64,000 nucleotides of DNA from an uncultured delta proteobacterium. GTDB taxonomy: Bacteria > Desulfobacterota > Desulfuromonadia > Geobacterales > DSM-12255. Of the stretch, positions 3,610 to 58,719 are shown one piece after another. The first letter of the stretch is position 1. Each line of letters starts with the position of its first letter. The notes beneath the pieces were generated by a model that saw only the letters and a list, made by a program, of their open reading frames with translations, searched no databases and was not told the origin of the DNA. The DNA lies in assembly GCA_963810975.1 (NCBI GenBank), contig CAWEPN010000004.1:1157-65156 (forward strand). Direction: 5' to 3'. The position numbers were made by a program, and so were the translations under genes.

Positions 3610-3645
3610 ACGTACACAGTTTGGCTGACGTTGTATGACCGATCC

Positions 3646-3676
3646 GGGGGAGCTTTCTGCTCCCCCTGTTTTTTAC
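3646..3676 (+). terminator. Rho-independent terminator after dfx
   Basis: GGGGGAGC-TTTCT-GCTCCCCC hairpin followed by TGTTTTTT. Confidence 0.75.
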
Positions 3677-3688
3677 GCGGATTACACT

Positions 3689-4949
3689 ATGCTCCTCAAA
3701 TATGGCGAAAAATCTTTTATCTGTAACCTTCCACCAGTGAATCTGCTCGGGTTGATAAAGGCTGCGTCCGCTGCGGATCAATCTTCGCCGGAAGAGCAGA
3801 TCAATATTGCTCTTGATAACTGTCAGCAGCAGATCTCAAACATAAAACCTTCTGAAGATGTCGTCATTGTTGCTTCAGATATCACCCGTTACAGCGGCAG
3901 TGAGATCTTTATGCCAATGCTGGTGGAGCGGCTTAATGAAGTTGGCGTTGTCGACAGCGCCATCACAATTGTTATCGCTCTCGGGATTCATCGCCAACAG
4001 ACAGAAACGGAACATCGCCGCATAATCGGCTCTCTCTATGGCAGAGTAAAAGTTATTGATCACGACTGTGACGATCCGGGCAAATTGGTGACCGTTGGCG
4101 TCACGACCTGTGGTATTGAAGTCTCGCATCAACCGGACTGTTGCCGAGGCAGATCATCTCATTCTGACCGGAACAATCGGCTTTCACTACTTTGCCGGGT
4201 TTAGTGGCGGGCGTAAAAGCATCCTCCCGGGGGTCTCCAGTCGCGCTGCCTGCATGGCAAGCCACTTCAATGTTCTCAACCCCGGCGAAGGAAACGGCAA
4301 GAACAGTTTTGCCGTTACCGGCAATCTTGACAACAATCCGGTGCACAGCGCAATGGTCGAGGCCTGCGCTATGGTAAAGCCTGATTTTATTCTCAACACA
4401 GTGCTGTCGCCGGACAAACAGATAATCGCAGCCTTTGCAGGACACTGGCAGGATGCACATGAAGCAGGCTGTCGCTATTATGCTGAAAACTTTGCCTATC
4501 CATTGAAAGAGAAGGCTGATTTGGCAGTTGTCTCCTGCGGCGGTTTTCCGAAGGATATAAACCTGATCCAGGCGCACAAGTCGATGGAGTATGGCAGTCA
4601 AGCGTTGAAAGATGGCGGAGTTATGATACTCCTTGCCGAGTGCCGGGACGGCTACGGCAATGCAACATTTTTCAACTGGTTTCGTTTCAGGGATCTTCCT
4701 TCGTTTGAGAGCAGGCTGCGCAGCCATTACGAAATCAACGGTCAGACGGCATATTCCCTGTTGCAGAAGGCGCTTCGCTTCCGTATCATTCTGGTTTCCA
4801 CGTTGCCACCGGAAGAGGTCCGGACAATGCGGATGATCCCGGCAGCGACGCTTGATGAGGCGCTGCAGATGGCAAAGGAAATGCTGCCGGACGATTTTAC
4901 GGCGTACGTTATTCCGGAAGGCGGAACGGTGCTGCCGGTCAAGATTTAA
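3689..4949 (+). CDS. LarA-family (DUF2088, nickel-pincer lactate-racemase-like) protein, split by a frameshift near 4128
   Basis: N-terminal MLLKYGEKS... and the LarA signature ADHLILTGTIGFHYFAGFSGGRKSILPGV. The two track ORFs (3635-4204 and 4095-4949) are contiguous in homology (..TTCGIEV | INRTVAEADHLIL..) and differ by a 1-nt frame change. Confidence 0.7.
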
Positions 4950-4950
4950 T

Positions 4951-5063
4951 TGAAACAATTCAGAGCAACTGAGCAACAGAGATAAAATTTGAGTATTTTT
5001 TTGAGTAATCGAGTTTTGTTCCCTATTTTGAGGGTTTCTCCGTTGCTCGTTGCTCTGTGTTCG
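4951..5063. repeat. CACAGAG-type palindromic intergenic element, copy 1
   Basis: Left arm CAGAGCAACTGAGCAACAGAGA and right arm TCTCCGTTGCTCGTTGCTCTGTG are imperfect inverted repeats separated by about 50 nt. Confidence 0.7.
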
Positions 5064-5082
5064 AAAAGAGGTTTGAATAAAA

Positions 5083-6420
5083 ATGATCGAAAAAAGAATC
5101 ATCGATGAACTGAAAAAGATAGTCGGAACTGACAACGTGGCGACCGACCTCCAGGATCTTATCTGCTACGGCTATGATGCCACCCAGATGGAGTTCCTGC
5201 CTGACGCGGTTGTTCATCCCGGTTCGCCGGAAGAGATTGCTGCTGTCCTGAAGCTGGCCAACGCAGAAAAATTCCCGGTGTTTCCGCGTGGCGCCGGGAG
5301 CGGCTTTACCGGTGGGGCCCTGGCAAAAGGTGGCGGCGTCGTCCTTGTGGTAACACGGCTTGACAGGATTTTGCGGATCGATACCGAGAACCTTATTGCC
5401 GAAGTGGAACCGGGTGTTGTTACCGAGCAGTTCCAGCTTGCGGTTGAAAAGCTGGGGCTTTTTTATCCGCCGGATCCTGCTTCGCTCAAGTTTTCCACGC
5501 TTGGCGGCAATGTGGCCGAGAATGCCGGCGGACCGCGCTGCGTCAAATATGGCGTAACCAGGGATTTCGTCATGGGGTTGGAGATTGTGCTTCCTACCGG
5601 AGAGATCATCCGTACCGGCGGCGAGACCTACAAGGGGGTGGTCGGTTACGACATGACCCGTCTTCTCTGCGGTTCCGAGGGGACTCTCGGTGTAATCACC
5701 AAGATCATCTTCAAACTGCTGCCGCTGCCGGAAGCAAAGAAGACCATGCTGACGATATTCGATTCGATTGATGGAGCGGCTAAAGCGGTTTCATCAATTA
5801 TCGGCAACAAGATCATTCCGACAACCCTGGAATTTATGGATTATGCCACCCTGAAGTGTGTCAATAATCGCTTTAATCTCGGAATTCCGGAAAGTGGCCG
5901 TGCCGTCCTTATAATCGAAGTGGACGGCGATTATGATCTGATTGAGAAGCAGGCGGCCAGAATCCAGGAGATCATCGCCCCGCTCGGGCTGGTAGAGTGC
6001 AAAATTGCCAAAGATGCGGCCGAGTCGGAAGCCCTCTGGAAAGTGAGGCGGCTTGTCTCTCCCTCTCTGCGGGATGTGAACCCTGACAAGTTCAACGAAG
6101 ATGTCGTGGTGCCACGTTCCAAGGTGCCGGAGATTATCCGGGTCATAGAAAAAATACAGCAGAAGTACGATATTCCGATTGTCAACTTCGGCCATGCCGG
6201 CGACGGCAATATCCATGTAAATGTGATGATCGACAAGAACGTTCCCGGCATGGAGGCAAAGGCTCATGAAGCTATTGCCGAAGTTTTTCAGGCGGCGCTT
6301 GATCTGAATGGCACCATGTCAGGCGAGCATGGCGTTGGTTTGGCGAAGCAGCCTTATATTCACCTGGAGCTGAAACCGGCGCAGGTAGCGGCAATGCAGG
6401 CGATCAAGCAGCGCGCTTGA
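5083..6420 (+). CDS. FAD-linked oxidase, GlcD-like (glycolate oxidase / D-lactate dehydrogenase subunit)
   Basis: FAD-binding PCMH domain (PRGAGSGFTGGA) and a C-terminal FAD-oxidase domain. 445 aa. Confidence 0.85.
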   Translation: MIEKRIIDELKKIVGTDNVATDLQDLICYGYDATQMEFLPDAVVHPGSPEEIAAVLKLANAEKFPVFPRGAGSGFTGGALAKGGGVVLVVTRLDRILRIDTENLIAEVEPGVVTEQFQLAVEKLGLFYPPDPASLKFSTLGGNVAENAGGPRCVKYGVTRDFVMGLEIVLPTGEIIRTGGETYKGVVGYDMTRLLCGSEGTLGVITKIIFKLLPLPEAKKTMLTIFDSIDGAAKAVSSIIGNKIIPTTLEFMDYATLKCVNNRFNLGIPESGRAVLIIEVDGDYDLIEKQAARIQEIIAPLGLVECKIAKDAAESEALWKVRRLVSPSLRDVNPDKFNEDVVVPRSKVPEIIRVIEKIQQKYDIPIVNFGHAGDGNIHVNVMIDKNVPGMEAKAHEAIAEVFQAALDLNGTMSGEHGVGLAKQPYIHLELKPAQVAAMQAIKQRA

Positions 6421-6473
6421 TCCGAATAATATACTGAATCCGGGGAAAATGTTTCCAGATCAGAAGCATAGTC

Positions 6474-6591: not shown

Positions 6592-6623
6592 AAAGGTTTT
6601 TGGATTATATATGAATAATTCCG

Positions 6624-7891
6624 ATGTTTAAAAAGAGTTGAACAGGAACTGAAAAAATGCGTCAAGTGCGGTGCCTGTAGGGCTAACTGTCCTGCCTTTG
6701 CCGCCTTCGGCAAGGAACCGGCTGTTGCCCGAGGCAAGTTGGCGCTTTGCCAGCATCTGCTCAAAGGTGATATCGAACTTGATGATGCTACCTACTCGGC
6801 CATGTCAAAATGCCTGCTCTGCGGTAACTGCGTCGACAAATGCCCCAACAGCGTGCCGACTGACGAGATCGTCATGGTTGCCCGCGAAGCGCTTGCCAAA
6901 AAACGTGGACTGACGACATTTCATGCCGCAGTCGGTCAGGTCATTCAGAATCGTACCCTGATGAAGTTCGGCGCATGCGGCCGGCAGAATTCTCGGCCCG
7001 CTCTTCTTTAAAAAAGTGCCGGAAACATCCGGACTTCGGCTCCGCTTTCCGCTGCCCTTCCTCGGTAACAAGCGCAATATACCCCCCCTGGCAAAGAAGC
7101 CTTTTCTGGAGCGTCATCCGGAAGTAATCCAGGGCGAACCGGGCAAACCGCGCATTGTTTTCTTTGTCGGCTGCATGACCAATTTCTGCTATCCGCAGAT
7201 TGGTGAAGCTGCTCTGGCGCTTTTCCGGCATCTCGGCTGTACGGTTATCATCCCGAAGGGGCAGCAGTGCTGCGGTCTGCCCGGAATGTCCGGCGGTGAT
7301 CTGGATACCGTTCGCGGCCTTGCGGAGAAGAACCTGATCGAATTGGAACGCTACGAAGCGGATTACATCATGAGCGCCTGCGCCACCTGCGGCGGGGCGC
7401 TCCACAAGTTCTACCCGAATCTGATCGGCAAACGTCACCCCGAACTGGCGGCCCGATTGAAAGCAATCGCCGAAAAAACTGTTGATGCCTCCCAGTTGCT
7501 CCACAAGCTGGGGTTGAATCCTGAGGAGACCGGCGGCGGACGTGACGTGAAGATAACCTACCATGATCCATGCCACCTCAAGACGCGAGGAATAATCAGT
7601 CAGCCGCGTGAACTTCTCCGGGGGACTCCGGGAGTGGAACTCACGGAGATGGAGGGGGCTGACAAATGCTGCGGTCTTGGCGGCACCTTCAATGTGTATC
7701 ACTATGAATCATCCATGAAGATAAATGCCGGCAAGAGCGCCGCTATCATCAAAACCGGCGCAGAAGCTGTCGCCACAGGCTGTCCCGGCTGTATGATGCA
7801 GCTCTCCGATGGGTTGAAGCAGGCGGGTAGTGCCATCAAGGTCATTCATACGCTGGAAGTGCTTGCGAGAAAGATTCGTAACAAGCGCTGA
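6624..7891 (+). CDS. GlcF-like Fe-S oxidoreductase (two 4Fe-4S ferredoxin motifs plus two CCG domains), interrupted by two apparent frameshifts
   Basis: The ATG at 6624 (MFKK) is out of frame with the body CVKCGACRANCP...CLLCGNCVDKCP. Removing one A from the A5 run at 6627-6631 restores MFKRVEQELKKCVKCGAC. A second frame change near 6975 joins the C-terminal part (CCG motifs CCGLPG, CCGLGG). Confidence 0.7.
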
Positions 7892-16329: not shown

Positions 16330-16786
16330 TTGAAACACAGAGCACACGGAGCCACAGAGAAAATCTATTTTGATTCTGAATTAACCGAATCATCATTGGT
16401 TGCGCGATTGAGGTTCATCGCACACTTGGGCCGGGTTTGCTTGAATCTGCATATGAAGAGTGTCTTGTTATGAACTTGATACGAAGCGGGTATTACCAGG
16501 TTGAGCGCAAAAAGATCTTGCCTGTCGAGCTACAAGGAGATAAACTTAGAGACTGGTTATCAGTCTTGATCTCTTGGTGGAGACAAGCGAGTTATCGTTG
16601 AGTTGAAATGCGTAGAAAAAATATTGCCGGTTCATGAGGCCAGACTTTTGACATATCTAAGAGTTGACGAGAGCTTGAAAACAGGATTTGCTTATCAACT
16701 TCTATCACCGGCTCTTAAAAGACGGCATCAGTAAGTATTGTTTACTGATTTTCTCTGTGTCTCAGTTGCTCTGTGTTTCAGAAAGG
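16330..16786. mobile_element. Full-length member of the CACAGAG palindromic element family, carrying a decayed GxxExxY gene between 35-bp inverted repeats
   Basis: Left inverted repeat TGAAACACAGAGCACACGGAGCCACAGAGAAAATC (16330-16364). The right inverted repeat at 16748-16786 reverse-complements to TGAAACACAGAGCAACTGAGACACAGAGAAAATC. A 380-bp insert lies between the arms. Confidence 0.7.
16384..16740 (+). pseudogene. GxxExxY-family (PD-(D/E)XK nuclease fold, PDDEXK_3-like) gene remnant; N-terminally truncated and frameshifted
   Basis: NRIIIGCAIEVHRTLGPGLLESAYEECLV...YQVERKKILPVELQGDKL...DLLVE(frameshift)DKRVIVELKCVEKILPVHEARLLTYLRVDESLKTGFAYQL. A single missing nucleotide in TTGGTGGA-GACAAG restores LLVEDKRVIVELK. 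Confidence 0.65.
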
Positions 16787-17607: not shown

Positions 17608-19102
17608 ATGAAGAAGAAGCTAGTAATTTTAAGCGCAGCAGCTATGGCAGTTGCTGCAGCAGTCCCGGCACTCGCTTTCGAGAACGAGTTCCACGGCATG
17701 TATCGTCTCCGCGCCAATGTGACGAATTTTCAGGAGGCAGGACTTGCCGGTTTCAAGTGTGGCGCATCCAGCAGCTGTACCACACCAGCCAGTAGCATTA
17801 CCCGTAACACAAACAGCATTATATTCGAAAGACGATCGGACTTCACTATCTTCGAGCAGAGAGCCCGGATCCAGTACATTGCCAAGGCGAGCGACGATCT
17901 TCAGCCTGGTAACCTTCTTTGAAATCGACTCCTCCTGGGGTGACACTGCCTATACAAACGGCACAGAGGCCAAGGCGCCGGTGCTGGCGGCGACTCAGTC
18001 AACCTCGAAACCAAGAACGTCTATCTTGACTTCAAGATTCCCTTCGACTCCGGTACAGATGAAAGTCGGTCTGCAGCCCTGGGGCGATGCCTACAAAGGG
18101 ATCATCTACAACAATGATCTTGCCGGCGCAGTTGCCACTGCCAAGCTCGATGCCCTGACCGCCACGCGGCGCATTCTTCCGCACCTATGATCAAGGTGGC
18201 GAATAGCACTGTCGGCAAGAAAAATGTCGACCTCTACGTGCTTGACGGCAAATTCGCCCTCAACAAGGACACCACCCTCGGCGCCTCCTACTATGCTGTT
18301 CTATAATGATAATACTACAAGCGCACTACACCGTCTGCGACTGTTGGAGCCCGAACGAGAATGCTATGACCATACGTTTGGTCTGAATGCCGCCACCAAG
18401 CTGGGAATAGTTGGTCTCGACGCCTTTGTTCTTTACCAGACCGGTGATGCGCTTTACGATTTCGTGCTGCTCACTAACTGGACAAACCAAAGATGTGAGT
18501 GCCTGGGCTGCCCAGATCGCTGCCAATGCCAATCTCGGCATGGCTACCGTTCAGCGGCGCTTTCCTCTACACCTCCGGTGATGACCGTGAAGATAATGAT
18601 GAAACAAATGCCTTCCAGGTAATTCAGGAAAATGCCAATGCTGCTGCGCCAGCAACTATTTGCAGCTCAGGGTGGCAACTACTACTCCTCACAGATGATG
18701 CTCCTCTTCAGAAACGTCTATGCTATGGATTCCGACCAGGCGATAGTTGCTAACTTCAACAACGGCAATCACGGCGTCATGGCCGGTTTCCTCGGCGCTG
18801 ATTTCAAGGTCAACGACAAGTTCACTGCTAACGTAAATGTTGGCGCTGCCTGGAATGCTGAGAAGCAAACTGTCGGTACTATAAAGAAAAAGATGATTTC
18901 CTCGGTACAGAGGTTAACCTGAGTCTCAACTACAAGCTCTATCCGACCCTGACTGCTACCCTCCAGGGTGCTTACTTCATGCTTGGCGACTACTATGACG
19001 ACAGAGTTGTAACCGCCCGTAGCGCTGCACACAGGCCGTCACAGCTACAGATGATCCGAAAGATCCGTACCTTACCGGTCTGATGCTGAACTACACATTC
19101 TA
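17608..19102 (+). pseudogene. Outer-membrane porin-like beta-barrel protein fragmented over at least 5 frames
   Basis: Signal peptide MKKKLVILSAAAMAVAAAVPALA. Successive track ORFs at 17608, 17744, 18224, 18499 and 18632 plus untracked pieces. Terminal ...DDPKDPYLTGLMLNYTF* with the C-terminal Phe typical of OMPs. Confidence 0.55.
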
Positions 19103-19438: not shown

Positions 19439-20931
19439 ATGCAAAAAGCAACCCGTTGGTTATTCCTGAGCGCCCTCTTTCTCCTGACAGCTGTTGCCAG
19501 TCATGCCGGCCAGCTCAAGGTGTATGTCGCCCCGTTTGCCGTAACCGGCGCTGCCAATGGCGCCGAATTGAAGAGTACCCTCCAGAATCTGCTGATGTCG
19601 CGTCTCAGCAACGATGCGGTTATTGCCGTCGAGAGCCCCGAAGGGGCAGATATCAGCATCAAAGGGAGCTATATTGCTTTCGGCAAAGTTTTCAGTATTG
19701 ATGCGGCGGCAAAAAGCAGCAGCGGCGCCGTTCTTGTCCGTGCCTTTGAGCAGGGGGAGAGCCAGGAAGAGGTGCTGTCGGCTGTCAACAAGGTGGCGAA
19801 AACCCTTCTCAGCGGTATTGAAAAAAGTTCCGGCAAAATTGGAACAGCGCAGCCACCCGCAGTAGCTCCCGCCAGCTCGCTGATAGTTTCAAACGTCTCC
19901 CCCGTCGTAAAAGCACCGCCGCAGTCAGATATTGTCAGGGTGGCAACAGTCGCTGAGCTGGCCGCTTCCGGCTGGATAAGCCAGAAAATGCCTGGAGAAC
20001 TGGTAGGCATAGCCGTTGGCCGAACTCTGGCAAGTGGCGAGCGGGAGGTTTTTATCGCCGGGATTCACAGTGTGCAGTACTTTCTCCAGGGGAAAGAGCT
20101 GAAGCTGCAGGCAGAGATTACCCTGCCGGTATACCAGCAGCTGCTCGCATCGATATAGCTGATCTGGACGGTGATGGGGTTCCGGAAATTTATCTCACTG
20201 TCATGAGTGGCGACGAGCTTGTTTCCGAGGTCTGGATAGCGGAGGGGACTTCACTGAAGAGAATTGGCGAAAAGCTCCCCTATTTTTTCCGGGCACTCTC
20301 CGTACAAGGTCAGGAGCCAAAGATATTTGCCCAACAGACGGCGCGGGATAGCGATTTCTTCGGTGACCTCTATGAGGTGAAGAAAAAGGGCAACCTGTTT
20401 GGAATCAGCAACCCTGTCAAGCTGCCACGCTACGCCAACATCTTCAACACCGCTGTTTTCCTGAACAAGGAAGGGAAGAGACTTTTTGCGGTGCTCAAGC
20501 AGGATGGCTATCTGCTGATTTTTGATGAAACCGGCAAAAACCTCTGGGAGAGCAGCGACAAGTACGGCGGTTCGGAAAGCTTCTTTACCCGGGATGATTT
20601 GGCAAACATGAATGTTACCGGCGCTGCGCGGCGAAAGATCTTCCTTGAGCAGCGGATTACTGTGACGAAGAGTGGTGAAATCATCGTCCCCAAAAATGAC
20701 GGCTTTTTTGTGATTGGCAATAACCGGGCCTACTCCAAAAACTCGGTTTTCGCCTTTGCCTGGAACGGCGTGGCGCTTGATGAGCTCTGGCATACAAAAC
20801 AGAGCCAGAATTACCTTGCCGATTATCGCTATGATGAAGCAACCAAAGAGCTGCTCATGCTGGAAGTTGTCAAGAAAGCGGGTATAATCGAGAAAGGCGC
20901 CAGTGCGCTTTTTATCAAGAAGGTTGAATAG
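19439..20931 (+). CDS. Secreted protein with a Ca-binding FG-GAP/VCBS-like DxDGDG motif; one frameshift near 20150
   Basis: Signal peptide MQKATRWLFLSALFLLTAVASHA. Track ORFs 19439-20158 and 20203-20931 join through ...IDIADLDGDGVPEIYL in the second frame. Confidence 0.55.
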
Positions 20932-35514: not shown

Positions 35515-36760
35515 ATGAAAAAATATATCATTATTGCGGTTATTGCACTTATTGCTGTCGGTGCCGGATTTTACTTTGTCAAGAGCAGGAAACCGGAGAT
35601 TACTTATAAAACTGCCAGGCTGGAGAAGGGGACAATCGTTTCCACGGTCTCGGCAACCGGCAATCTCTCCGCAGTTACCACTATTCAGGTAGGTACCCAG
35701 GTTTCCGGGACCATCCAGAAACTGTATGTCGACTACAACTCGCGGGTCAAAAAGGGGGAGACGATTGCCGAGATCGATCCTTCGCTTTTCAACGCCTCCG
35801 TTGAGCAGTCGCAAGGGAACTTTCTCGTTGCCGAGGCAAATCTTCTAAAGGCCAAGGTTAGTCTGGCTGATGCCGAGCGGACTCTGCAGCGCAACAGAAA
35901 ACTTCTTGCTGACGGGATAATTTCCCAGGGGGATTTCGACATCTCAGAAACAGCCTGGCAGGCGGCAAAGGCTTCCGTCAAAGCTGCCGAAGGGAGTGTT
36001 GCCCAGACCCGCGGGGCGCTTATGCAGGCAAGGACGAACCTGCGCTACTCCATCATCCGCTCTCCGGTTGACGGGATTGTCATCTCCAGGGCGGTTGACG
36101 TCGGCCAGACCGTCGCCGCTTCATTCCAGACACCGACCCTTTTCACCATTGCCCAGGACCTCACCAAAATGCAGATTGAGGTTAGTGTTGATGAGGCGGA
36201 TATCAGCCGTATAAAGCTTGGTCAGCAGGCTACTTTTTCTGTTGATGCATATCCGGAGCAGAAATTTGCCGGCAAGGTGGTGCAGATCAGGAGTGCTCCG
36301 ATTGTTACCCAGAACGTCGTCACCTATGTGGTGGTTGTCAATGTGGATAATAGCGAAATGAAGCTTAAGCCGGGCATGACGGCTAATGTCTCCATCGTTG
36401 TTGCCAAAAAGGATGATGTTGTCAAGATTCCGCCGGCTGCGCTCCGCTTCAAACCGAAAGGTGGCGAAGAGAAACCTGCTGCAGCTAAAGGGTAAGCAGG
36501 AAGCAACTGTTGCCTCAATGGGGAAAGGTGGTCGTGAAGGGGGTAAAAAGCCGGGCGATAAGAAAGATGGCGGCCAGACAGTTTACACTCTGAAAGAGGG
36601 TAAGCCAGTGGCGCTCTCCATAAAGACCGGCATTGCCAGCAGTGGCAGCATCGAACTGGTCGAAGGGGATCTCAAAGAAGGGGACGAAGTAATTGTTGAG
36701 CAGACTGGCGGTATTGCCAATAAAAAGAGCAGCTCAAGTCCGATGGGGAGACCGTTCTAG
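35515..36760 (+). CDS. HlyD/MacA-family periplasmic adaptor of an efflux pump; frameshift near 36490
   Basis: N-terminal TM, coiled-coil and barrel domains. The C-terminal membrane-proximal domain (QTVYTLKEGKPVALSIKTG...) lies in the overlapping track ORF 36386-36760. Confidence 0.7.
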
Positions 36761-38680: not shown

Positions 38681-38709
38681 TGCGCTTCGATATGAGTAGA
38701 AAATGAAAT

Positions 38710-42577: not shown

Positions 42578-42636
42578 ATCTAGGATTATTTGTAAAGTTT
42601 GGCGGAGTCTATTTCATTATCAGGGAGTATCGGGCT

Positions 42637-43380: not shown

Positions 43381-46300
43381 TTATTCTTCCAGCAGTGCGG
43401 TGATCTTCTCCATGAAGGCATCGACAGTGAACGGTTTTTGAATAAAACTTATTCCCTCCTGCAACCGTCCGTCCTTGATAAAGACGTCGTTGGTGTAGCC
43501 GGACATGTAGAGAACTTTGCCGATATCAGCGAGCTCGGCTGACAGTCGCTCGAAGAGTTGCCGGCCGTTCATCCCGGGCATTACCACGTCGGTGATAAGC
43601 AGATCGATCCTGCCGATCTGCTGCGCCCGCTCCAGTGCCTTCATAGGATCGTCTTCCAGGTAGACCCGGTAGCCGAGTCCGGTCAGAAGTTCACCGACCA
43701 TCTCCCGGACCATCTCGTTGTCTTCCACCAGCAAGATAGTAGCGTTGCCGCCCTGATCCGCAACGGCAGCTTCCTTTTCCTGCCCGGCAGGTGGTAAAGG
43801 GCTGGCCGATGCCGGAAAGTAGATTTTAAAACAGGTCCCCTTGCCAACCGTGCTCTGCACTTCGATATAACCGTTATGCTGTTTGACTATGCCGTAGACA
43901 TTGGCCAGGCCAAGACCTGTTCCGTGGCCGACCGGCTTGGTGGTGAAGAATGGCTCGAATATATGCTGCAGAACTGAATCGGTCATACCGCAGCCACTAT
44001 CCCTGCACGACAGCAGGACATTCATTCCGGCGGTTATTTCCGGATGGCTGTGGGCGTACTCGTCATCTATCAGGACCTGCCCGGTCTCGATGACTATCGT
44101 GCCATTGTTGGCAATGGCGTCCTGAGCATTGATGGCCAGATTGAGGATAATCTGCTCAACTTTTGAACGGTCAGCCATTATCACCTGGGGCTGCGGGGAG
44201 AGTTGCAGCTGTATATCGATGTTTTCGCGCAGGGGACGGCGGATCACCGGGAAAAACGAGTTGACGATTTCATTAAGATCAAGGGGACTGGTCTGCATTA
44301 TCTGTTTTCGTCCAAAGCCGAGCAGCTGGTTGGTCAGGTCGCGCGCCCTGAGCGACGACCTGCTGATAGCATCCAGCATGCTGTGCGTTTTCTCGTCATC
44401 GGTGGGAGTTATTTTTTTCAGCATGTCGGCACAGACCATGATCGGCGTCAACAGGTTGTTAAAATCATGGGCCATCCCTCCTGCCAGATGGCCGATGGCT
44501 TCCATTTTTTGCGACTGGTGCAGCTGCTCTTCCAGGGCATTCCGTTCTGTTTCGGCCCGATGGCGCTCGATGGCAATACCGGCAAAGGCAGATGCCTGTT
44601 CGATCAGGCGGAGTTCATCCTCTCCTGGGGATAAAGGCTCCCGGTGATAAATGGCAAAGGTGCCGAGCAGCTTGCCGGAGGAAGAGAATATCGGCTCTGA
44701 CCAGCAGGAGCGCAGACCGGCTTCCTCTGCCGGAGTGAATCCTTTCCAGAAGGGGTGCGTGGCAATATCTTCGACAATAACCCGCTGTCGACGAAATGCC
44801 GCAGTCCCGCAGGAACCGACCCCCTCGCCGATTTTCGTACGATTCACGGCGCTATTGTAGGCAGCCGGGAGACTCGGTGCCGCGCCAGTGAGAAGCCGCT
44901 TGCCATCCTCACTGATCAGCAGGATCGAACAGAGCGCACCCGACCGCTCCTTCTCCACCGACAGGGCGATAAAACCGAGCAGCTCTTGCAGCGAATCTCC
45001 CCGGGCGATCCGCTCCAGCATCTCCGAACGGACATGTTCACGCATCTCCGATTTCTTCAGTTCGGTAATATCCTTGATCAGATGCACCGCCCTGACGATC
45101 CTGCCGGCCTTGTCAAAGACAGGGTCCAGTGAAACATCGTACCAGCTGGCGCCGACCTGCAGCTCCATGACAGCCCGCCTGCCGCTGGCAACCATCTGGT
45201 CAAAAGGACAATTTGCGTGGGGTGCCGGACTGTTGTGGGCGATGTCGCAGCAGCTCCTGCCGCAAACCTCCTGGGCCGAAAGACCGAAAATTGTCTGAGT
45301 GGCCTTGTTGGCGCGGATAATGATCCGTTCCATGTCAAGGAGCCAGATGGCATCGGCCGAGGAGTCAAAGGTCTCCTGCCATTCCTGGGCAGTCACTGCC
45401 AGCTTCTGTTCGGTCAGCTTGCGTTCACTGATGTTGCGCACGACGCTCAGGATGAATGTTTTACCCTGTATCTCGATAGGTCTGGCATGAACCTCGATAG
45501 GTACAATACTGCCGGACAGATGCAGATAGGCCGACTCAAATTGGGCGTCGCCACCGCGGGCAATCAGTTTTTGAATGTTTTCCACAACCCTGGCGGCATA
45601 TTCCGGTGGCTCAATCTCCTGGATCAGCCGGTTTTCCAACCCTCGCGACTGTACCCGGAAATACGACAAAGCGCTTCATTGAAGTAGCAGAGTCTGCCGG
45701 TGACATCGAGAAGAAGTACTGCATCGGTAGCTGAATCAAGTAATTCAACCTTGGTGCGGTTGTCTGACTGTTCCATATTAAGCAGGTCGTTGGTATCTTC
45801 AAGGAGTTTAAGCTGCCGTAGAAAAAGCAGGGAGAGCAGAAAGATGACCGCCATCAGCAGGAGTAAAACAGACCCTTGCACATAACAGGAGGACAACCAG
45901 TGGGCAGTGACATCTGCCTTGCTCATGGAAACGATGGCGACTAGCGGCAGGCTGTCAAAGGCATGGTAGGAGACGATGCTCATGTCGCCGCTGACCGGTG
46001 AGATAAAGTGGTGCGTTCCGGTGCGTGCTGCCGGGATCATGGTTTTAAAAAGGCTGGAGGCGGCAAGATCAACCAAAGGTGGTTTGTCCTGATGCGGTTC
46101 CATGATGAGCATATCGCCGCCGGTCGTTGCGAGAATTATCCGGCCTTGATTGCCGACACTGAGGGACTTGTAAAAGTTCTCAAAATACTTTGTCTCGAAG
46201 GTTGCCGCTACTAGCGCAATTAACTTGCCGTCAGCGTTGCGCACGGAGCGGCTGAGGCAGAAGCGGGAGGTGCCGCTTACCCTGCTGGTAAACGGCTTTG

Positions 46301-46748
46301 ATATGTACATTCCTGCTGACGGGGAATCACGATGAAACAGAAAATAGTCGCGATCAGCCACATTAACAGGCTTCATGCGAAATTCCTTCGAATGGGCGAC
46401 AATCATGCCGCTGGCATCTACAATAAAAACCGAGCTGAACTGGGGTCCACTCAGGGCATATTGAGTAAGAAGTTCGTAAAAACGTGCACTCTGGGTGAAA
46501 GACAGCCCGCCATTCTTATTTATGTCGTCCTGGAGGTTTTTCAATGAATTGTCAGCATCGGTAAAGACCCGCTCGCCATGTTCCTTAAGGGCATTGGCGT
46601 AGCTTGCCGAACTCTTTTCAGCGTTGCTGACAACTATCTGGTACTCTTTTGCAAAGCTCCAATAAAAGAAGAATGCCAGCAACAGCAGTACCAGACCAAC
46701 AGTACTTAATATCTTGAGTTTGATTTTTTTATATGGACCACTTGGCAT
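43381..46748 (-). CDS. Hybrid sensor histidine kinase, about 1130 aa (TM-Cache-like sensor, PAS, PAS, GAF, HisKA, HATPase, REC); frameshift near 45655
   Basis: The track ORF 45624-46748 ends inside a PAS domain (..ISGYSRE..) that continues in ORF 43381-45669 (..[15 protein letters not shown]..). H-box HDFNNLL. C-terminal receiver with DVVMPGMNG. Confidence 0.7.
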
Positions 46749-48223: not shown

Positions 48224-49829
48224 ATGCCACACACAAAGAATTACGGTACCTTGCAAGACCGCGTACGTCACAAGTCACTGTTGAGCAAGGTTATGACAGC
48301 AGAGGAGACAGTTCAATTCTTCAAGCCGGGCATGAATCTTGGCTGGTCCGGGTTTACCCCGGCTGGTTATCCGAAAGTAGTGCCTATTGCTGTTGCTGAG
48401 CATGTTGAAAAAAACAACCTCCAGGGCAAGTGGAAGTTCAACCTCTTTATCGGCGCGTCTGTCGGTGCAGAGACTGAAGACCGCTGGGCAGTCAATGACA
48501 TGATCGACCGCCGCTGGCCTTACCAGACCGGCAAGAACATCGCCGCCGGCATCAACGAAGGCCGCATCCGCATGGGCGACAAGCACCTTTCCCTCTTTGC
48601 CCAGGACCTTGGCTATGGTTTCTACACCAAGGACTCACGAAACCGGCAAACTTGACCTGGCAATAATCGAAGTATCCGCAATTACCGAAGACGGCAGTCT
48701 GGTTCCGACCTCATCCTGCGGCGTTATTCCCGAAATCCTGATGCAGTGCGACAAGATCATCATCGAGGTAAACACCGGACAGCCATCTTTCGAAGGGATT
48801 CACGATCTTCTTACTCCGCTTACTCCGCCGAACCGCCAGGTGTTCAACATCACCAAGGCTAACTCCCGTATCGGTTCCACCTCGATCCCCTGCGATCCGA
48901 AGAAAATCATCGCCGTGGTCGAGTCCAAACTGCGTGACCAGGGGCGTGCCTTTGCCGAGCAGGACGACACCTCCGAGGCGATTGCCAACCACGTCATCGA
49001 CTTCTTTACTCAGGAAGTTAAAGCCGGCCGTCTGCCGGACAACCTGCTGCCGCTCCAGTCCGGCGTCGGTTCCATCGCCAACGCCGTTATCGGCGGTCTG
49101 GCCAAGGGTCCGTTCTACAACCTGTCTGTCTACACCGAGGTTCTCCAGGACACCATGCTTGACCTGTTTGACTCGGGCAAACTGGACTGCGCTTCTTCCT
49201 GCTCGCTGTCGCTCTCGGCAGAACCGGGCTTCCCGAAATTCTTCGCCAACATGGAGAAGTATTTCGACAAGATCGTGCTCCGTCCGCTCTCCATCTCCAA
49301 TGCTCCTGAGCCGATCCGTCGTCTCGGGTGTATCGCCATGAACACCCCGGTTGAGATCGACATCTACGCTCACGCCAACTCGACCCTGGTCGGCGGTACC
49401 CGCATGATCAACGGTCTCGGCGGTTCCGGCGACTTCCTCCGCAACGGCTACCTGAAGATGATGCACACCCCGTCGAGCCGGCCGAGCAAGACCGATCCGA
49501 CCGGTATCTCCTGCGTGGTGCCGCACTGCTCACACATCGACCACACCGAGCACGACCTTGACTGCGTCATCACCGAGCAGGGCCTTGCCGACCTGCGCGG
49601 CCTGGCGCCGAAGGATCGCGCCCGCCGGATCATCGAGAAGTGCGCCCATCCGGACTACAAGGATCAGCTGAACGAATACCTTGCCATTGCCGAGCACGAG
49701 TGTCTCCGTCGCAAGGTGGGTCATGAGCCGCAGCTTTGGGATCGCGCTTTCAAGATGCATCTCAATCTTGAGAAGAACGGCACCATGAAGCTCAAGAACT
49801 GGGATGTAAAGGTTGACCTCTGCGAATAA
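48224..49829 (+). CDS. Acetyl-CoA hydrolase/transferase family (succinyl-CoA:acetate CoA-transferase-like); frameshift near 48640
   Basis: Track ORFs 48224-48655 and 48597-49829 are contiguous in homology (about 535 aa). GG and CoA-transferase family III-like motifs. Confidence 0.7.
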
Positions 49830-49892: not shown

Positions 49893-50029
49893 ATAAAATC
49901 ATCTTTGAATTTGTCGCTCGGTCTAACATGATGAAACTGCAACTCCAATTTGCAGTTGTTTTCATTTGACTACTAAACTGGCGGCTGTTAAAGCTTTTCA
50001 AAATTGAAGATCAATCGATATGGTGCCGT

Positions 50030-51744: not shown

Positions 51745-53094
51745 ATGCGCATATCCAGCTATCTTTTTGTTACGGCACTTTCTATGACTTTGGTCTGTCC
51801 AGTTTCTCCGGCGAGTGCCAAATATTCGCCACCGGACTTTGTAGAGATGGCCAAGAGACTGAAACCGACCGTTGTTAATATCGGAACCGAGAAAAAGGCG
51901 AAACAACAGCGGCGTCAGCAGCTTAGGCCTTACGGTAATTCACCCTTTGGCAGTGACCCCTTTCAGGATTTCTTCGACAGGTTTTTTGATGAGCAGCTTC
52001 CGCAGAGCAGGGCGCAGAAGAGTCTCGGTTCAGGCTTTGTCATAAGCGATGACGGCTATATCCTTACGAACAACCATGTAGTCGATGGAGCAGATGAGAT
52101 AAAGGTGAAGTTTGACAACGGCAAGGAGCTCAAGGGGGAGTTGAAAGGGAGTGACGCCAAGCTTGACCTTGCGCTGATAAAGGTAACTACCGATGAAAAA
52201 CTATCCGTTGCGGCTCTTGGCGACAGTGACGCGATAGAGGTCGGTGAATGGGTAATGGCAATCGGCAATCCTTTCGGTTTGTCGGAAACCGTTACCGCCG
52301 GAATTGTCAGCGCAAAAGGGAGGGTTATCGGCAGCGGTCCCTATGATGATTTCATCCAGACTGACGCCTCTATTAATCCGGGCAATTCAGGCGGACCTCT
52401 CTTTAATGGCAAAGGCGAGGTTGTCGGGATAAATACCGCTATAATCAATGGCGGCCAGGGGATAGGCTTTGCTATTCCGGTAAATATGGCGAAGTCAATC
52501 ATTACACAATTGAAGGACAAGGGGAAGGTCACCAGAGGATGGATGGGGGTTTCGGTTCAGCAGGTGACAAAAGACCTTGCCGACTCTTTCGGGCTTCCGG
52601 CTGAAGGGGGCGCGCTGGTGAGTGAAGTGACCCCTGACAGTCCTGCAGAGAAAGGTGGCATGAAATCCGGCGACATAATCATCAGCTTTGACGGCAAGGC
52701 TATAAAAGAGATGACTGACCTGCCGCGTCTTGTAGCGGCAACAGCTACAGGGAAGAGTGTTGCGGTGAAGATCATTCGTGATGGAAAGGAAGAGTCTCTC
52801 ACTCTTGTCATTGAGAAGATGAAAGATGATGAAGAGCCATCAGCTGAAACTCAGGATAAACTGGGCTTAACAGTAAAAGATCTGACGAAAGAGCTTGCTG
52901 CAAGCCTTCGGATCAAGGATACCTCAGGCGTGGTAGTCACGGATGTAAAGCCGGACAGTCTTGCCGCCAGTGCCGGGATCCAGAGGGGAGACATCGTCCG
53001 GGAGATAAACGGGGTCAGGATCACCAAGACTGAAGAGTATGAAAAAGCTCTTGCCAGTGCCAAAAAGGACAAAGTTGCTGAGGCTTCTCGTTAA
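51745..53094 (+). CDS. Periplasmic serine endoprotease DegP/HtrA-like (trypsin domain plus two PDZ)
   Basis: Signal peptide. Catalytic triad context HVV, DLALIK, GNSGGPL. Two PDZ domains. 449 aa. Confidence 0.88.
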   Translation: MRISSYLFVTALSMTLVCPVSPASAKYSPPDFVEMAKRLKPTVVNIGTEKKAKQQRRQQLRPYGNSPFGSDPFQDFFDRFFDEQLPQSRAQKSLGSGFVISDDGYILTNNHVVDGADEIKVKFDNGKELKGELKGSDAKLDLALIKVTTDEKLSVAALGDSDAIEVGEWVMAIGNPFGLSETVTAGIVSAKGRVIGSGPYDDFIQTDASINPGNSGGPLFNGKGEVVGINTAIINGGQGIGFAIPVNMAKSIITQLKDKGKVTRGWMGVSVQQVTKDLADSFGLPAEGGALVSEVTPDSPAEKGGMKSGDIIISFDGKAIKEMTDLPRLVAATATGKSVAVKIIRDGKEESLTLVIEKMKDDEEPSAETQDKLGLTVKDLTKELAASLRIKDTSGVVVTDVKPDSLAASAGIQRGDIVREINGVRITKTEEYEKALASAKKDKVAEASR

Positions 53095-53157
53095 ACATGG
53101 CGAGAGTTCGAGATTTGTTGCCATAAAAGTGGAGTAGTCAACGCAATGAATGAACTG

Positions 53158-55099: not shown

Positions 55100-55269
55100 T
55101 TATCTGCACAATCATTCATTAGCTGGCTGCATGAATCAGAAGTTGAAGGCTGCCTTCAGACCGACAACGCTCTGATCCTTTTACTCATGGGGAGGATCAG
55201 GCTTCATTTCTGGCTGTGGAATTAAATGCGTTGGAATACAGGTAATATGGGAGAAATTTTGAATGTTAT

Positions 55270-55890
55270 CGGGTAACCAGAATAATCCGCACTGGCTGTG
55301 AGTTCATAGTTGTGCCAATTGTTATACTTACCGTACAGAAATAATCGCTCTTCATGTTATAACTGGCCAGGGCTCCCAGATTCAGACCGAGATTCTTCAT
55401 CAACTCCAGACTGTGGACCGACGGAAAGAGTGTAGAAGAGCCCGGTAATCCTTCGCCTGCTGCCAATCGCAATAAACAGCCAATGTCGGGGAGAGGAGCG
55501 TGTTTAGTGTTGCCTTGAGATACAGCTCGTTGGTGTCAAGCTGCACTGTCAAGGTTGTAATAAATATTGCCGACATTAAGCGACAGCAGCTCAACCGGCT
55601 TGTATGTATAGTTAAGCGTGATGTCTGTTTCGGTAACCTCACCCGCTTTGAGAGTAGGCCCGCTGACCATCTGCTCATTGCTCCAGTAGCTCACGGTAAA
55701 ATCCTTGTAACTGACATCCACACCACCCTGAACAACCCCTCTGCTATTGCTAAGATCAAACCCACGCCAAACATACTTGCTTGCCGGACTGACATAAACA
55801 TCACCGGAAACCTTGACTTCCGCCACCGCAACGGTAGCAACCGCTGTCATCATTACTGCCGCCAATCATCACAACAAACTTTTTCATACT
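55270..55890 (-). CDS. Small outer-membrane beta-barrel-like protein upstream of glnK; apparently frameshifted (low confidence)
   Basis: Signal peptide MKKFVVMI..AVATVAVAEVKVSGDVYV. The alternating beta pattern continues across track ORFs 55536-55865, 55400-55678 and 55266-55472 in different frames. Confidence 0.35.
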
Positions 55891-56120
55891 TGTACCCCTT
55901 TGTAGTAGATTTGGTGATCATTCACCATGTGTTGAACAGTTAGTTAAGGTATCGCTGTGAATTCAGATTTTGTTTAAATACTTAGCATAAGCCGTGCCAT
56001 CAGTTGATAACTCAGTATTTACCGACTGTTAACCTGATTTTAATCACTCAAAGGGATGCTTGCTCCCCAACCTGTCCTAATAAACCTGCACAAAATTTAA
56101 TCAGTGAAGGCAGAAAAGCA

Positions 56121-56714
56121 TCACTTAGCTACAGATCTTCTCCCGGAACCACATTCAGTCAGCATAATCGCCTCGGCAATCTTGAGCAGTGTTGTCCTTT
56201 TATCCATGGCCAGCTTTTGCATCCGCCTGAAAGCTTCAGGTTCGCTCAACCCATGCTCGCGCATCAGCAAGCCCTTGGCCTTCTCTACTGACTTCCTGTT
56301 TTCAAGAGCGCCTTCAAGAGCGGCCACCTTCTCCTTGAGCTCTTCGAGTTCATGATTATGGACAGCAGCCAGCTCAATTGCCGGCCAGAGCTCTTCCTTG
56401 CGAACCGGTTTTGCCAGAAAACCGCCTGCACCGGCAGCTATAGCCATTTCAATCGACTCGGCACTGAAAGCAGAGCCTACCATGATGACAGGAATATGCT
56501 GTTTTGAGCGGATACGCTTGATTGACTGTAACCACTCTGTACCCGCAGCAGCAGTATCAATGATCGCCACATCTGGAAGATGATCTGCCGCGAGAGAACA
56601 GGCGCGGTCGTTATCCGTAGATTCTAAAATTTGTGCAAAGCCAAGCTCATGCAGCATAAATTTAAGGCGTTCACCTTCAGTGGCAGTTGCGGTGCAAATA
56701 AGCGCATTCTTCAT
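56121..56714 (-). CDS. REC plus ANTAR RNA-binding antiterminator response regulator (AmiR/NasT-like)
   Basis: N-terminal receiver. C-terminal ANTAR (VEKAKGLLMREHGLSEPEAFRRMQKLAMDKRTTLLKIAEAI). 197 aa. Confidence 0.82.
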   Translation of the reverse strand: MKNALICTATATEGERLKFMLHELGFAQILESTDNDRACSLAADHLPDVAIIDTAAAGTEWLQSIKRIRSKQHIPVIMVGSAFSAESIEMAIAAGAGGFLAKPVRKEELWPAIELAAVHNHELEELKEKVAALEGALENRKSVEKAKGLLMREHGLSEPEAFRRMQKLAMDKRTTLLKIAEAIMLTECGSGRRSVAK

Positions 56715-56950
56715 TGATTTCGCCTCCTTAGGAGTGGTGCAGAGCAGAGCACCACCGACTGATACCCAAGTAAAAGCATCAATCGAGCCAATACCGAATT
56801 TATAAAATATTTTGACTTATTTAAAAGGAGAGTGAGACAGGAGAGACCCAAAAATTGCTTCAAAGACTGCCCGGATCAAGAGAAGAATGAACAAATCCAG
56901 TCAGTTGGAAGCTTGCTGGAAGAGAACATCAGGCTTTTCCGGACAGGCCC

Positions 56951-57768
56951 TTAGCCGTAACTCCCCATGCTTGCCAGGGCAAACACCAAATCCGGCCGAT
57001 ACTCCGGAGGCTTGCCGCGGTACATCAGCAGCGTGCTGCCGTTGGCAGTAAAGCCGTTGGTCTGCAGGAGTCTGGCCGCGCTTGGGTTTTTTTCCGGCAC
57101 ATCGAGAAAGATGGCGCCGCTGCCGCTAACCATCCCAGGGTCTTTGCCAGCAGCTCGACCGCTACTCTGCCGCTGGTCGCTCCCCAGGGGCCAAGCTGCA
57201 ATCCTGCCTCCTGCTGCAGGCAGCTGAGGAAGCCGCCATCCATTAACTGCCAGCCGGAACCGCTGTTGCTACTGGAAAATAGGGCAGTCCGCCGGTCTCC
57301 CCAGCCTATGGAATCGAGGGCCGCAGCGTATCGCAAATCCACCGCTGCAGGGAGGGGCGCCTGCAAGCTGCCGCACATGCGCCACCGCCGGATGGTGTCA
57401 ATGGCTGTGAAGCCCAGGCGGCGATAGAGGTCCGCACCGTCGCTGGAGGCAGTGAGCCAGACCGTGCTGCAGCCGTCGGCGTCGAGCCGCCGCAGCACGG
57501 CCTGCATCAGTTCCCGGCCAAGTCCCTTGCGGCGGTGGTGCGGCGCAACAATCAGGTTGCCGATCCAGGCGGAATTTGTGTAGCGAATGGCGGTGATGAA
57601 CGCTGCCGTTTCTCCGTCGACCTTTGCTGCAAGGCATCCTTGCGGGTAGTGCTGGCGCAGGAAAGTAAACTCGTTACGGTCTGTTATCCAGTTCTCGGCG
57701 GCCGCCAGCTGTAGAAAGAGCTCCTCGTCCGCGTGGTCGAACTGCTTCAGCGTTATTTCAGCTGGCAC
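56951..57768 (-). CDS. GNAT-family acetyltransferase with a C-terminal extension; frameshift near 57100. Fused to nifB in the track because of a nifB frameshift
   Basis: GNAT core WIGNLIVAPHHRRKGLGRELMQAV. C-terminal piece in track ORF 56951-57133. Probable GTG start overlapping the nifB end. Confidence 0.5.
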
Positions 57769-58719
57769 TGCAGGCTGCCCGGGCAAACTGCATATCCTGG
57801 CCGATAAGGCCGATTGCATCAGCCCGGCACTGTTTGCAGTGTTTGAACTGGCCGATAATCTTTTCGTTGGCAGACTGAACAGCGGCAATCTCCTCGCTGT
57901 TGGCGGAGTAATGCCGGCAAAATCGGACTGGGGGATAATCGGCATGACATTCATGACAAATGCCCCCAGTGACTTGACTTTTTCGGCAATCAACGGGATC
58001 TGGGCATCGTTGACCCCCGGAATAAGGACGGTATTCACCTTGATGGTCATGCCGTAAGCAGCGGCGCTTTTCAATCCGGACAGCTGGTTGGCGATCAGGA
58101 TTGAAGCTGCCTCTTCCCCGCTGTAGCGCTTGCCGTGATAATTGATGTGGCTGTAAATCTTCGCTCCGACTGCCGGATCAAGCGCATTGACCGTAACCGT
58201 CAAACTGTGGAGATCCAGCGCCTCAAGATCATCGATCCGCTCAGGTAGAAGCAGACCGTTGGTGCTCATGCATTTGATCAGGTGGGGGAACTCTTCACCG
58301 ATAAGCCGGAACGTCTCGAACGTCTCTTCATTTGCCAGCGGATCGCCAGGCCCGGCAATGCCGATAACCTTGATCAGTTGACCGAGCATCTCGCTCGCCA
58401 TGACTTCACGAACCTTCTCGATAGCCTCCAGAGGGGTCATTATCCGGCTGGTAACCCCGGGGCGGGATTCATTGGCACAGTCGTGACGGCGGCTGCAGTA
58501 GCCGCACTTTATGTTGCATTTCGGCGCAACCGCAAGATGCATCCTGCCGTTCTTGTGATGATTACCGCCAAAACATGGATGGCCCTGAATGTTTTTTCTT
58601 CCGGAACATGCACTTCCCATGACGTACCCCCTTTCTCTGTAAAAAGAGCCCTGCAGAGAATGCTCCTGCAGGGCTCCATTGCCCGACGTAAATTCTGTTT
58701 TAATTTTGCCGCGTTGCAA
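57758..58719 (-). CDS. nifB: NifB-type radical-SAM protein (SAM domain only, no NifX-like C-terminal domain); frameshift near 57880
   Basis: HPCFGGNHHKNGRMHLAVAPKCNIKCGYCSRRHDCANESRPGV signature. True C-terminus ...KHCKQCRADAIGLIGQD...ACSAS* found in the +2 frame, with the stop at 57758-57760. Confidence 0.7.

Follow-up and report, generated by a model that had tools for sequence, protein, structure and literature searches.

A 64-kb stretch of contig CAWEPN010000004.1 (the window, meaning the whole of the DNA analyzed here) carries shifts of reading frame in about 20 of its roughly 54 genes, with at least 50 insertion or deletion (indel) events in all. These frame breaks are very probably residual consensus errors of a long-read metagenome assembly and not real pseudogenes, because relatives have intact genes, frame-corrected sequences are free of stop codons, and the ratio of nonsynonymous to synonymous substitution rates (dN/dS) is unchanged downstream of the breaks. 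An earlier model reading of the bare DNA (the sequence-only reading) had proposed uncorrected indel errors, which these comparisons support, and its warning that pseudogene calls in the window are unsafe is upheld on the same comparative evidence. Its estimate that about a quarter of the genes are affected was too low. Finished bacterial genomes carry only a few per cent pseudogenes, so the share of broken genes found here lies far beyond chance.

The window belongs to a long contig (190,979 bp) of an uncultured bacterium that appears related to Geobacteraceae and Desulfuromonadaceae. If noisy long reads were incompletely corrected, small insertions and deletions would remain in the consensus. 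Since each such error shifts the frame, gene callers would return several open reading frames (ORFs), a truncated C terminus, or a false fusion. False fusions of this kind seem to have arisen at two places, joining SPFH with AAA-Lon and NifB with GNAT.

ORF maps of the window showed many neighboring same-strand ORFs in differing frames. Each gene was judged by at least one of three tests: continuity of Pfam profiles, frameshift-aware protein-to-DNA alignment, and nucleotide alignment to related contigs. The frameshift-aware aligner was written for this purpose, run on 20 genes against close homologues, and cross-checked by gapped nucleotide alignments. It tags a 2-nucleotide (nt) skip as "del1," which is ambiguous between two insertions and one deletion; the direction of an indel was taken from nucleotide alignment wherever a relative existed. 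All 15 genes for which homology had previously been described as continuing across a frame change were confirmed by Pfam, frameshift-aware, and nucleotide alignments, and the positions proposed for them were mostly right to within a few bases. For the DUF362, polyferredoxin, and GNAT genes, the genes are indeed affected, but the position estimates were 25 to 50 nt off. The earlier count of "15 or more" genes stands, although the list was incomplete: GlcD, HypC, SPFH, the MacB permease, and DegP have to be added. These five genes are hit near their ends, where the ORF map alone appears normal. The affected genes are as follows (a plus sign before a number denotes extra bases and a minus sign missing bases).

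3689..4946, plus strand: LarA-like protein; +1 at 4127, TCTCG[C]ATCAA, outside any homopolymer
5083..6460, plus strand: GlcD-like FAD oxidase; net +1 at 6409-6413, truncating the conserved C terminus
6611..7891, plus strand: GlcF-like Fe-S/CCG subunit; -1 at 6627 (codon 5-6) and +1 at 6976
16345..16744, plus strand: GxxExxY/PDDEXK_3 small gene; 2 to 5 frame changes in 400 nt
17608..19100, plus strand: Geobacter-type (alginate-export-like) porin; at least 11 frame changes, with about 14 indels relative to contig L175, mostly single-base insertions
19439..20931, plus strand: secreted FG-GAP-like protein; -1 at 20148
25629..25857, plus strand: HypC; +1 at 25815-25818, changing the last ~13 residues
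26018..27097, plus strand: HypD; -1, -4, -2, and -4 (net -11) within 26054-26097, and -1 at 26647 (AAAAATT|CAT)
28537..31866, minus strand: AAA-Lon gene (two AAA domains plus a Lon_C protease domain, ~1100 amino acids [aa]); +1 confined by flanking stops to the 8-nt interval 31211-31218 (probably GATCC[C]TGAA), and 4 nt missing near its start, 31842-31846
31844..32791, minus strand: SPFH/Band-7 gene; last residues and stop codon lost
33927..35073, plus strand: DUF362-ferredoxin; +1 at 34565, CCGG[C]GAG
35515..36760, plus strand: MacA-like membrane-fusion protein; extra T at 36493, giving a TAA stop
37472..38699, plus strand: MacB-type permease; +1 at 38661-38666, replacing the last ~10 residues
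39383..40356, minus strand: polyferredoxin (Fer4_5) membrane protein; -1 at 39899-39901
43381..46748, minus strand: hybrid sensor kinase (dCache-PAS-GAF-HisKA-HATPase-REC); -1 at 45640, GAGG[A]GTTG
48224..49829, plus strand: acetyl-CoA hydrolase/transferase; +1 at 48638-48642
51745..53137, plus strand: DegP/HtrA protease; +1 at 53071-53074, truncating the second PDZ domain
55139..55887, minus strand: small outer membrane protein (OMP; Gcw_chp/TorF-like); about 12 extra bases in ~750 nt, zero deficits
56951..57786, minus strand: GNAT acetyltransferase; -1 at 57134
57758..58620, minus strand: NifB-like radical-SAM protein; -1 at 57895

Relatives for comparison were found by exact-sequence look-up of the window's proteins, which led to 90%-identity clusters and from there to the contigs of the cluster members. 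Most of the intact comparison contigs bear SPAdes, MEGAHIT-style, or JGI names. At every window break that was covered, we found a relative without the indel (relatives at 81 to 99% nucleotide identity). The main comparison contigs were the following.

L167, Logan ERR11748452, 99.1% nucleotide identity over 1157 nt: LarA region
L164, ENA ERZ795126, SPAdes-style node with coverage of ~14, 97.2% nucleotide identity: intact 1122-aa kinase
L168, Logan, 95.4% nucleotide identity: separate 320-aa SPFH gene
L165 and L166, ENA, JGI, 90% nucleotide identity: intact MacA (414 aa)
L165 only: intact DUF362 protein (381 aa); L166 begins inside the DUF362 gene
L163, Logan, 90% nucleotide identity: small-OMP ORF of 178 aa, cut at the contig end
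L161, ENA, 85% nucleotide identity: intact PDDEXK_3 gene
L170, JGI, 81 to 86% nucleotide identity: intact LarA (423 aa), GlcD (461 aa), and GlcF (426 aa)
L172, JGI, 83% nucleotide identity (PII/AmtB part): intact AmtB
L173, JGI, 80% nucleotide identity: intact 244-aa small OMP
L175, ENA scaffold, 73 to 86% nucleotide identity: syntenic, with porin, FG-GAP protein, pyruvate kinase (PK), HypF, HypC, and HypD all intact

Pfam profiles continued from one frame into another in several of the genes. The Lar_N profile ran over positions 1 to 146 in one frame and 146 to 201 in the next, the DUF362 profile over 1 to 174 and 172 to 199, and the HypD profile over 17 to 203 and 203 to 351. The N-domain AcetylCoA_hydro profile of the CoA-transferase was split over two frames, as were the Fer4_5 domains of the polyferredoxin, and the Fer4_8 and CCG domains of GlcF lay in separate frames. 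The GNAT gene had its Acetyltransf_1 domain in one frame and an Acetyltransf_18 C terminus in another, and the kinase kept Pfam continuity through its PAS region. In tblastn searches, more than 70 homologues crossed the hypD junction at 26642-26654, and proteins P0112, P0114, P0118, and P0121 crossed the junction in the CoA-transferase.

Alignments placed the same breaks to within a few bases. Against the intact 423-aa LarA of L170, frameshift-aware alignment gave one shift, at 4127, where the extra C is absent from both L167 and L170. GlcF aligned with its intact 426-aa counterpart in L170 (96% amino acid identity) with shifts at 6627 and 6976, and the FG-GAP protein aligned with its L175 orthologue (86% amino acid identity) with a sole shift at 20148. 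For HypC, the shift fell at 25815 against the L175 protein (92% identity), with nucleotide gaps relative to both L169 and L175; the gaps in hypD were identical relative to these two loci. The DUF362 break was placed at 34565 by the nucleotide gap and at 34566 by the frameshift-aware alignment (the intact orthologue is that of L165), the polyferredoxin break at 39901 (gap relative to L169) and 39899, and the nifB break at 57895 and 57896 (against the L171 NifB, 99% identity). The kinase, whose intact 1122-aa orthologue P0107 lies in L164, showed a gap at 45640 and a single shift by frameshift-aware alignment. The MacA ORF of the window is 326 aa long versus 414 aa in P0100 and P0103, with the gap at 36493 seen relative to L165, L166, and L169. 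Gaps at 48642 relative to L169 and L176 mark the CoA-transferase break. Frameshift-aware alignments were run for HypD, MacA, and the CoA-transferase as well. The GNAT break was seen as a gap relative to L171. Two further GNAT shifts in the alignment to L171 (57078 and 56902) were put down to errors in L171, since the Pfam match runs on through the window frame.

Breaks near gene ends shortened the proteins only slightly. The GlcD ORF is 445 aa long versus 459 to 461 aa in cluster relatives, and its C-terminal LDPNNILNPGKMF is found in the next frame; the tblastn junction lies at 6411/6413 and the frameshift-aware break at 6409. For the MacB permease (402 aa versus 408 aa in relatives), the tblastn match ended at 38662-38665, the frameshift-aware alignment shifted at 38666, and the gap relative to L169 was at 38661. 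DegP (449 aa versus 464 aa for P0064) matched by tblastn in two frames, with a gap relative to L162 at 53074 and a frameshift-aware break at 53071. Breaks fell anywhere in genes (codon 5 in glcF, a third of the distance along the kinase, and the last few codons elsewhere) with no clear avoidance of damaging positions, which indicates that they were not filtered by selection.

We looked for signs of decay in frame-corrected alignments. No in-frame stop was found in 14 genes (~6,700 codons); the only exceptions in the stop listings were artifacts of the broken ORFs of L169 and L171 themselves. Downstream of the breaks, dN/dS was 0.03 to 0.21, matching the upstream parts and intact neighbors. The downstream and upstream values were 0.16 versus 0.24 for the kinase, 0.12 versus 0.12 for DUF362, 0.109 versus 0.085 for the FG-GAP protein, and 0.08 versus 0.15 for LarA, and the intact genes PK, HypF, and AmtB gave 0.05, 0.13, and 0.03, respectively. 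Relaxed selection, visible as a higher dN/dS in the inactivated parts, was therefore not found in the tested genes. Nor did we see a decay-type mixture of lesions with deletion bias, as insertions were at least as frequent as deletions and the small OMP had insertions only. On these comparisons, real, inherited pseudogenes appear very unlikely.

A syntenic sister contig offered an independent view of the same kind of damage. This contig (ENA ERZ25039503 contig_108190, 82,659 bp, comprising loci L169 and L171) has a Flye-style name and ~88 to 91% identity to the window, and it is far more fragmented, with HypF in at least four pieces and MacA, MacB, AmtB, the ANTAR regulator, and the small OMP all split. 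In genes left unbroken in the window, it shows about 50 single-base excesses over the window sequence, roughly one every 400 nt, and most of its errors are insertions outside homopolymers. None of the window breaks was shared with the sister contig at L169 or L171. Damage of the same class, at independent positions and in different samples, suggests a cause in the method rather than inheritance.

The sequence context of the indels was ordinary. Apart from the hot spots described below, we counted 22 background events: 10 single-base insertions (4127, 6412, 6976, 25816, 31214, 34565, 36493, 38662, 48641, and 53073) and 12 deficits (6627, 20148, five in hypD, 31846, 39900, 45640, 57134, and 57895). 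Multibase events included -4, -2, and -4 in hypD and +2, +5, and +14 in the OMP genes. Typical contexts were TCG[C]ATC, CGG[C]GAG, GGG[T]AAG, and GAGG(A)GTTG. Only 3 of the 48 located sites lay within 2 nt of a homopolymer of at least 4, compared with 12.3% of window positions; for runs of at least 5, the figures were 1 of 48 sites and 4.6% of positions. The homopolymer signature that had been suggested as a check is thus absent, and the glcF event cited as its example is not inside the A5 run. It sits just 5' of the run, at GT|TTA, and is possibly a T4 shortened to T3. The error type is random-context and not homopolymer driven. Nothing resembling a common motif (e.g., a methylation motif) was obvious by eye at the 48 contexts, for which no formal motif search was run.

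Indels were spread unevenly over the window. The background rate was ~0.35 events per kb (~1 indel per 3 kb), with insertions about as frequent as deletions, whereas hot spots had ~10 to 16 events per kb, a density 25 to 45 times the background. With relatives only ~80 to 90% identical there, the numbers of events given for the hot spots are approximate. In the porin, five homologues agreed on shifts near 17905, 17964, 18040, 18167, 18203, 18298, 18477, 18555, 18658, 18882, and ~19030, at least 11 changes where 5 or more had been proposed. The frame-stitched porin aligned with intact porins of 472 to 509 aa over 99 to 100% of its length at 66 to 68% identity. At the background rate, the hand-calculated Poisson probability of at least 11 events in this gene is ~1e-11. 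The small OMP had insertions at 55864, 55541, 55447, 55415, 55339, 55334, 55277, 55271, 55262, 55248, 55198 (+2), and 55192 (+5), with the same window-extra gaps relative to three relatives (L163, L173, and L171), and its frameshift-aware alignment gave 9 shifts at 89% identity. The L173 orthologue is intact (244 aa), and the L163 ORF, truncated by the contig end at 178 aa, is unbroken across the break sites of the window. A 252-aa gene at the small-OMP position in L172 could not be aligned to the window OMP because of its divergence.

The GxxExxY gene matched in three successive frames by tblastn, and L161 has an intact 133-aa PDDEXK_3 gene at the equivalent place. Frameshift-aware alignment gave 5 shifts, but at 57% identity this count is uncertain. 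The 5' end of hypD forms a further hot spot, with four distinct gaps in 45 nt relative to both L169 and L175. Together with the break at 26647, this makes four gaps plus one in a gene for which two had been reported. Between the GxxExxY gene and the porin lies an intact epimerase gene, the protein of which is 100% identical to that of L161; the dense errors are therefore gene specific and not regional. The hot-spot genes may be multicopy or hypervariable in the population (porin, small OMP, and PDDEXK_3/GxxExxY). Homologues of the porin family are numerous among Geobacter relatives, and GxxExxY genes are typically multicopy. Reads of other strains or paralogues mapping across, or thin strain-specific coverage, would degrade the consensus at such places, and we infer that low coverage or strain mixture is the cause of the hot spots. 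The dense 45-nt stretch in hypD is affected as well. The hypD cluster (four deletions in 45 nt) and the small OMP (~12 insertions and no deletion) both show patterns unlike natural mutation.

Two of the breaks have false fusions as their consequence. Treating a split ORF as one gene, as the sequence-only reading advised, proved sound, but its single "SPFH-AAA-Lon" gene is two genes in relatives. Downstream of the SPFH part, comparison indicates that AAA-Lon is one gene across 31211-31218, with the Walker A motif before the junction and the remainder of the first AAA fold after it, an arrangement that the ORF geometry supports. The SPFH ORF of the window is 526 aa long versus 282 to 321 aa (mostly 310 to 321) in 26 cluster relatives, the alignment ends at residue 315-316, and a nucleotide gap is present relative to L168. 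In relatives, SPFH is a gene of its own (320 aa), and its end overlaps the AAA-Lon start. In L168, SPFH ends in ...KRDVSNAKN*, and the following ORF begins with MSPTRRTRTPTY within the SPFH 3' end. At this junction, the window has 4 nt fewer than L168 and reads ...KRDVPRRTRTPIY; the deficit at 31842-31846 thereby fuses SPFH in frame to AAA-Lon. The second fusion is an open frame of 574 aa from stop to stop (57028-58749; 564 aa from the first TTG, 57025-58719) that carries Radical_SAM and GNAT domains on one ORF, while the true NifB C terminus, HCKQCRADAIGL, lies in another frame. The NifB-GNAT read-through is spurious because of the deficit at 57895 in nifB.

The SPFH and AAA-Lon genes together form a block of ~4.3 kb (28537-32791, minus strand) that adjoins an integrase gene (32948-33835). 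The block is missing from the syntenic sister contig at L169, where integrase fragments come almost immediately after NDH-2. Such an arrangement suggests a mobile or accessory island.

The uneven density raises the possibility of a mixed case, in which the scattered single indels are errors and the porin, small OMP, and GxxExxY genes are genuine decaying pseudogenes. An indel density of 25 to 45 times the background would fit such a history, surface proteins and multicopy small genes are dispensable and often lost, and the porin has diverged from L175 more than any other gene (68% amino acid identity versus 83 to 93% for its neighbors). However, the 486 codons of the porin and the 244 of the small OMP were free of stops, and the dN/dS values (0.20 overall for the porin, with 13 shifts, and 0.07 for the small OMP) are typical of functional genes. 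A neutral gene gathering 12 to 14 indels would by estimate be expected to collect ~100 or more substitutions and several stops. Bacterial pseudogenes are deletion biased, the opposite of a small OMP with insertions only and a porin with mostly insertions, and long-read polishing is itself expected to fail in hypervariable, multicopy genes. We therefore consider the mixed case improbable. Pseudogenization across the whole genome, with real frameshifts in about a third of the genes after relaxed selection or a mutator episode, has in its favor that the breaks are truly in the deposited sequence and lineage specific and that no read data directly contradict it. It is hard to reconcile with zero nonsense mutations against at least 50 indels, with the lack of a deletion bias, and with a dN/dS that is not raised downstream of the breaks. 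The 99.1%-identical L167 is without the LarA insertion, relatives at 97% identity are intact, operon structure and gene content fit a free-living Desulfuromonadales bacterium, and an independent long contig from another sample has like damage elsewhere, which speaks for the method and not the organism. This scenario is highly improbable. Recoding, whereby ribosomal frameshifting or transcriptional slippage would make the frame changes functional, has nothing specific to recommend it and was considered only for the clean homology across each break. Neither a slippery heptamer nor a long homopolymer is common to the shift sites; +1, -1, and multibase changes are all present; and several genes would need at least 10 events. 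No site is conserved in any relative compared, and by this nonconservation recoding is effectively refuted; we give it hardly any credence. Programmed frameshifting, phase variation by simple repeats, and alternative genetic codes were likewise rejected, as there were no slippery sequences or repeats and no site was conserved in relatives.

Several points weigh against consensus errors as the explanation. A uniform error process would not be expected to cluster so strongly in three or four genes, so an extra assumption, coverage or strain heterogeneity, is needed. The homopolymer signature known as classical for Nanopore R9, 454, and IonTorrent data is absent, and the long-read origin and platform are themselves inferred from the error pattern and the long contig. 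The status of each single indel as an error is likewise probable only, as it follows from comparison with relatives. Most of these relatives are 81 to 97% identical and do not belong to the same population; given this, a lineage-specific and very recent burst of real frameshifts is formally possible. The comparison set is also not uniformly clean, as L167 and L176 carry frame breaks of their own. L167 has a -2 change in a G5 run (window position 4229), which suggests that it is itself a noisy consensus, from the population of the window or one very similar to it, and the CoA-transferase gene of L176 (JGI) is short by 34 nt (window 48663-48696). We give only a slim chance to the view that some or all of the breaks are real, through a recent burst of small indels (e.g., in a mutator lineage) or an insertion-biased inactivation of the porin, small OMP, and GxxExxY genes.

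Known systems place the window closest to a sequencing artifact. Watson and Warr are said to have dealt in 2019 with indel-induced ORF truncation in long-read assemblies, using the IDEEL test. As in Nanopore or PacBio CLR (continuous long read) artifacts, single-nucleotide indels split or truncate many genes of the window while homology runs across frames, close relatives are intact, nonsense mutations are lacking, and sister contigs are unequally affected. The window differs from older Nanopore data, which have homopolymer indels as their signature (only 3 of 48 sites here), and its errors cluster strongly in a few hypervariable or multicopy genes. It matches the long-read indel artifact in every tested respect except homopolymer bias. 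Genome decay, as in Mycobacterium leprae, Sodalis glossinidius, and host-restricted Salmonella, shares the high proportion of disrupted reading frames. Its other features, namely, nonsense mutations, larger deletions, deletion bias, raised dN/dS, and breaks shared with relatives, were not seen in the window. Slippage and programmed frameshifting (e.g., the poly-A tracts of endosymbionts, prfB, and dnaX) also let coding continue in another frame, but they need long homopolymers or conserved slippery sites kept in relatives, neither of which is present in the window. Truncation of ORFs by indels has been documented in long-read assemblies and metagenome-assembled genomes (MAGs) at modest coverage (Sereika et al. 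2022, PMC9262707; Kastor, PMC12007338).

The finding is a data-quality warning of low biological interest. Until the sequence is polished, split genes, apparent pseudogenes, odd fusions, short orphan ORFs, and missing C termini should be discounted in the window and probably in the whole 190,979-bp contig; two cases in point are the SPFH fusion of 526 aa and the NifB-GNAT open frame, which spans 574 aa from stop to stop. Because errors occur in random sequence context, a nonhomopolymer position does not clear an indel of suspicion. Because the error density is much higher in hypervariable or multicopy genes such as porins, surface proteins that seem to be decaying in a long-read MAG deserve particular distrust.

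The window has a GC content of ~52% and zero N, and its gene complement is that of a typical anaerobic Desulfuromonadales or Geobacter-like bacterium. Its genes include the following.

Flavodiiron protein (FDP), desulfoferrodoxin (Dfx), and LarA-GlcD-GlcF
Acyl-CoA carboxylase, methylmalonyl-CoA mutase, and epimerase
Porin, PK, HypF-HypC-HypD, and NDH-2
SPFH gene, AAA-Lon gene, integrase, and DUF362 ferredoxin
MacAB, MscL, polyferredoxin, TtcA, and RluD
Hybrid kinase, rubrerythrin (Rbr), CoA-transferase, ThiC, and DegP
AmtB-GlnB, small OMP, ANTAR regulator, GNAT, NifB, DraG, and NfeD

Unbroken in the window are FDP, Dfx, PK, HypF, NDH-2, the integrase, the MacB ATPase, MscL, TtcA, RluD, the response regulator (RR), Rbr, ThiC, AmtB, PII, DraG, and NfeD. 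When genome contigs were scanned with HypF, the closest species-representative was a Geobacteraceae MAG (67% amino acid identity); among metagenome contigs, the top match had 62% amino acid identity. In the matches from these scans, gene order was conserved no further than hypFCD, and they were unsuited to nucleotide-level comparison.

Other features of the window were noted in passing. An intact 959-aa ORF (10777-13656, plus strand) has biotin carboxylase domains and a C-terminal biotinyl (biotin carboxyl carrier protein, BCCP) domain and adjoins the carboxyltransferase, methylmalonyl-CoA mutase, and epimerase genes; the neighborhood resembles a gene cluster of the propionate or methylmalonyl-CoA pathway. 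Directly 5' of the ThiC-like gene (50332-51642) is a full-length cobalamin riboswitch (50004-50192, plus strand; 125.9 bits). The usual control of ThiC is a thiamine pyrophosphate (TPP) riboswitch, which makes this pairing unusual. Finally, a repeat of ~215 to 230 nt has three copies in the window (42370-42584, minus strand; 59197-59401, plus strand; and 61494-61712, plus strand), a partial window copy (43320-43383), and one copy in L175 (9137-9341, in the hypC-hypD spacer), with a mean identity of 81%. It had no match in Rfam. RNAalifold predicted a single long imperfect hairpin with 63 pairs, 15 of which have compensatory double changes, and the repeat may be an element resembling a miniature inverted-repeat transposable element (MITE) or a structured RNA.

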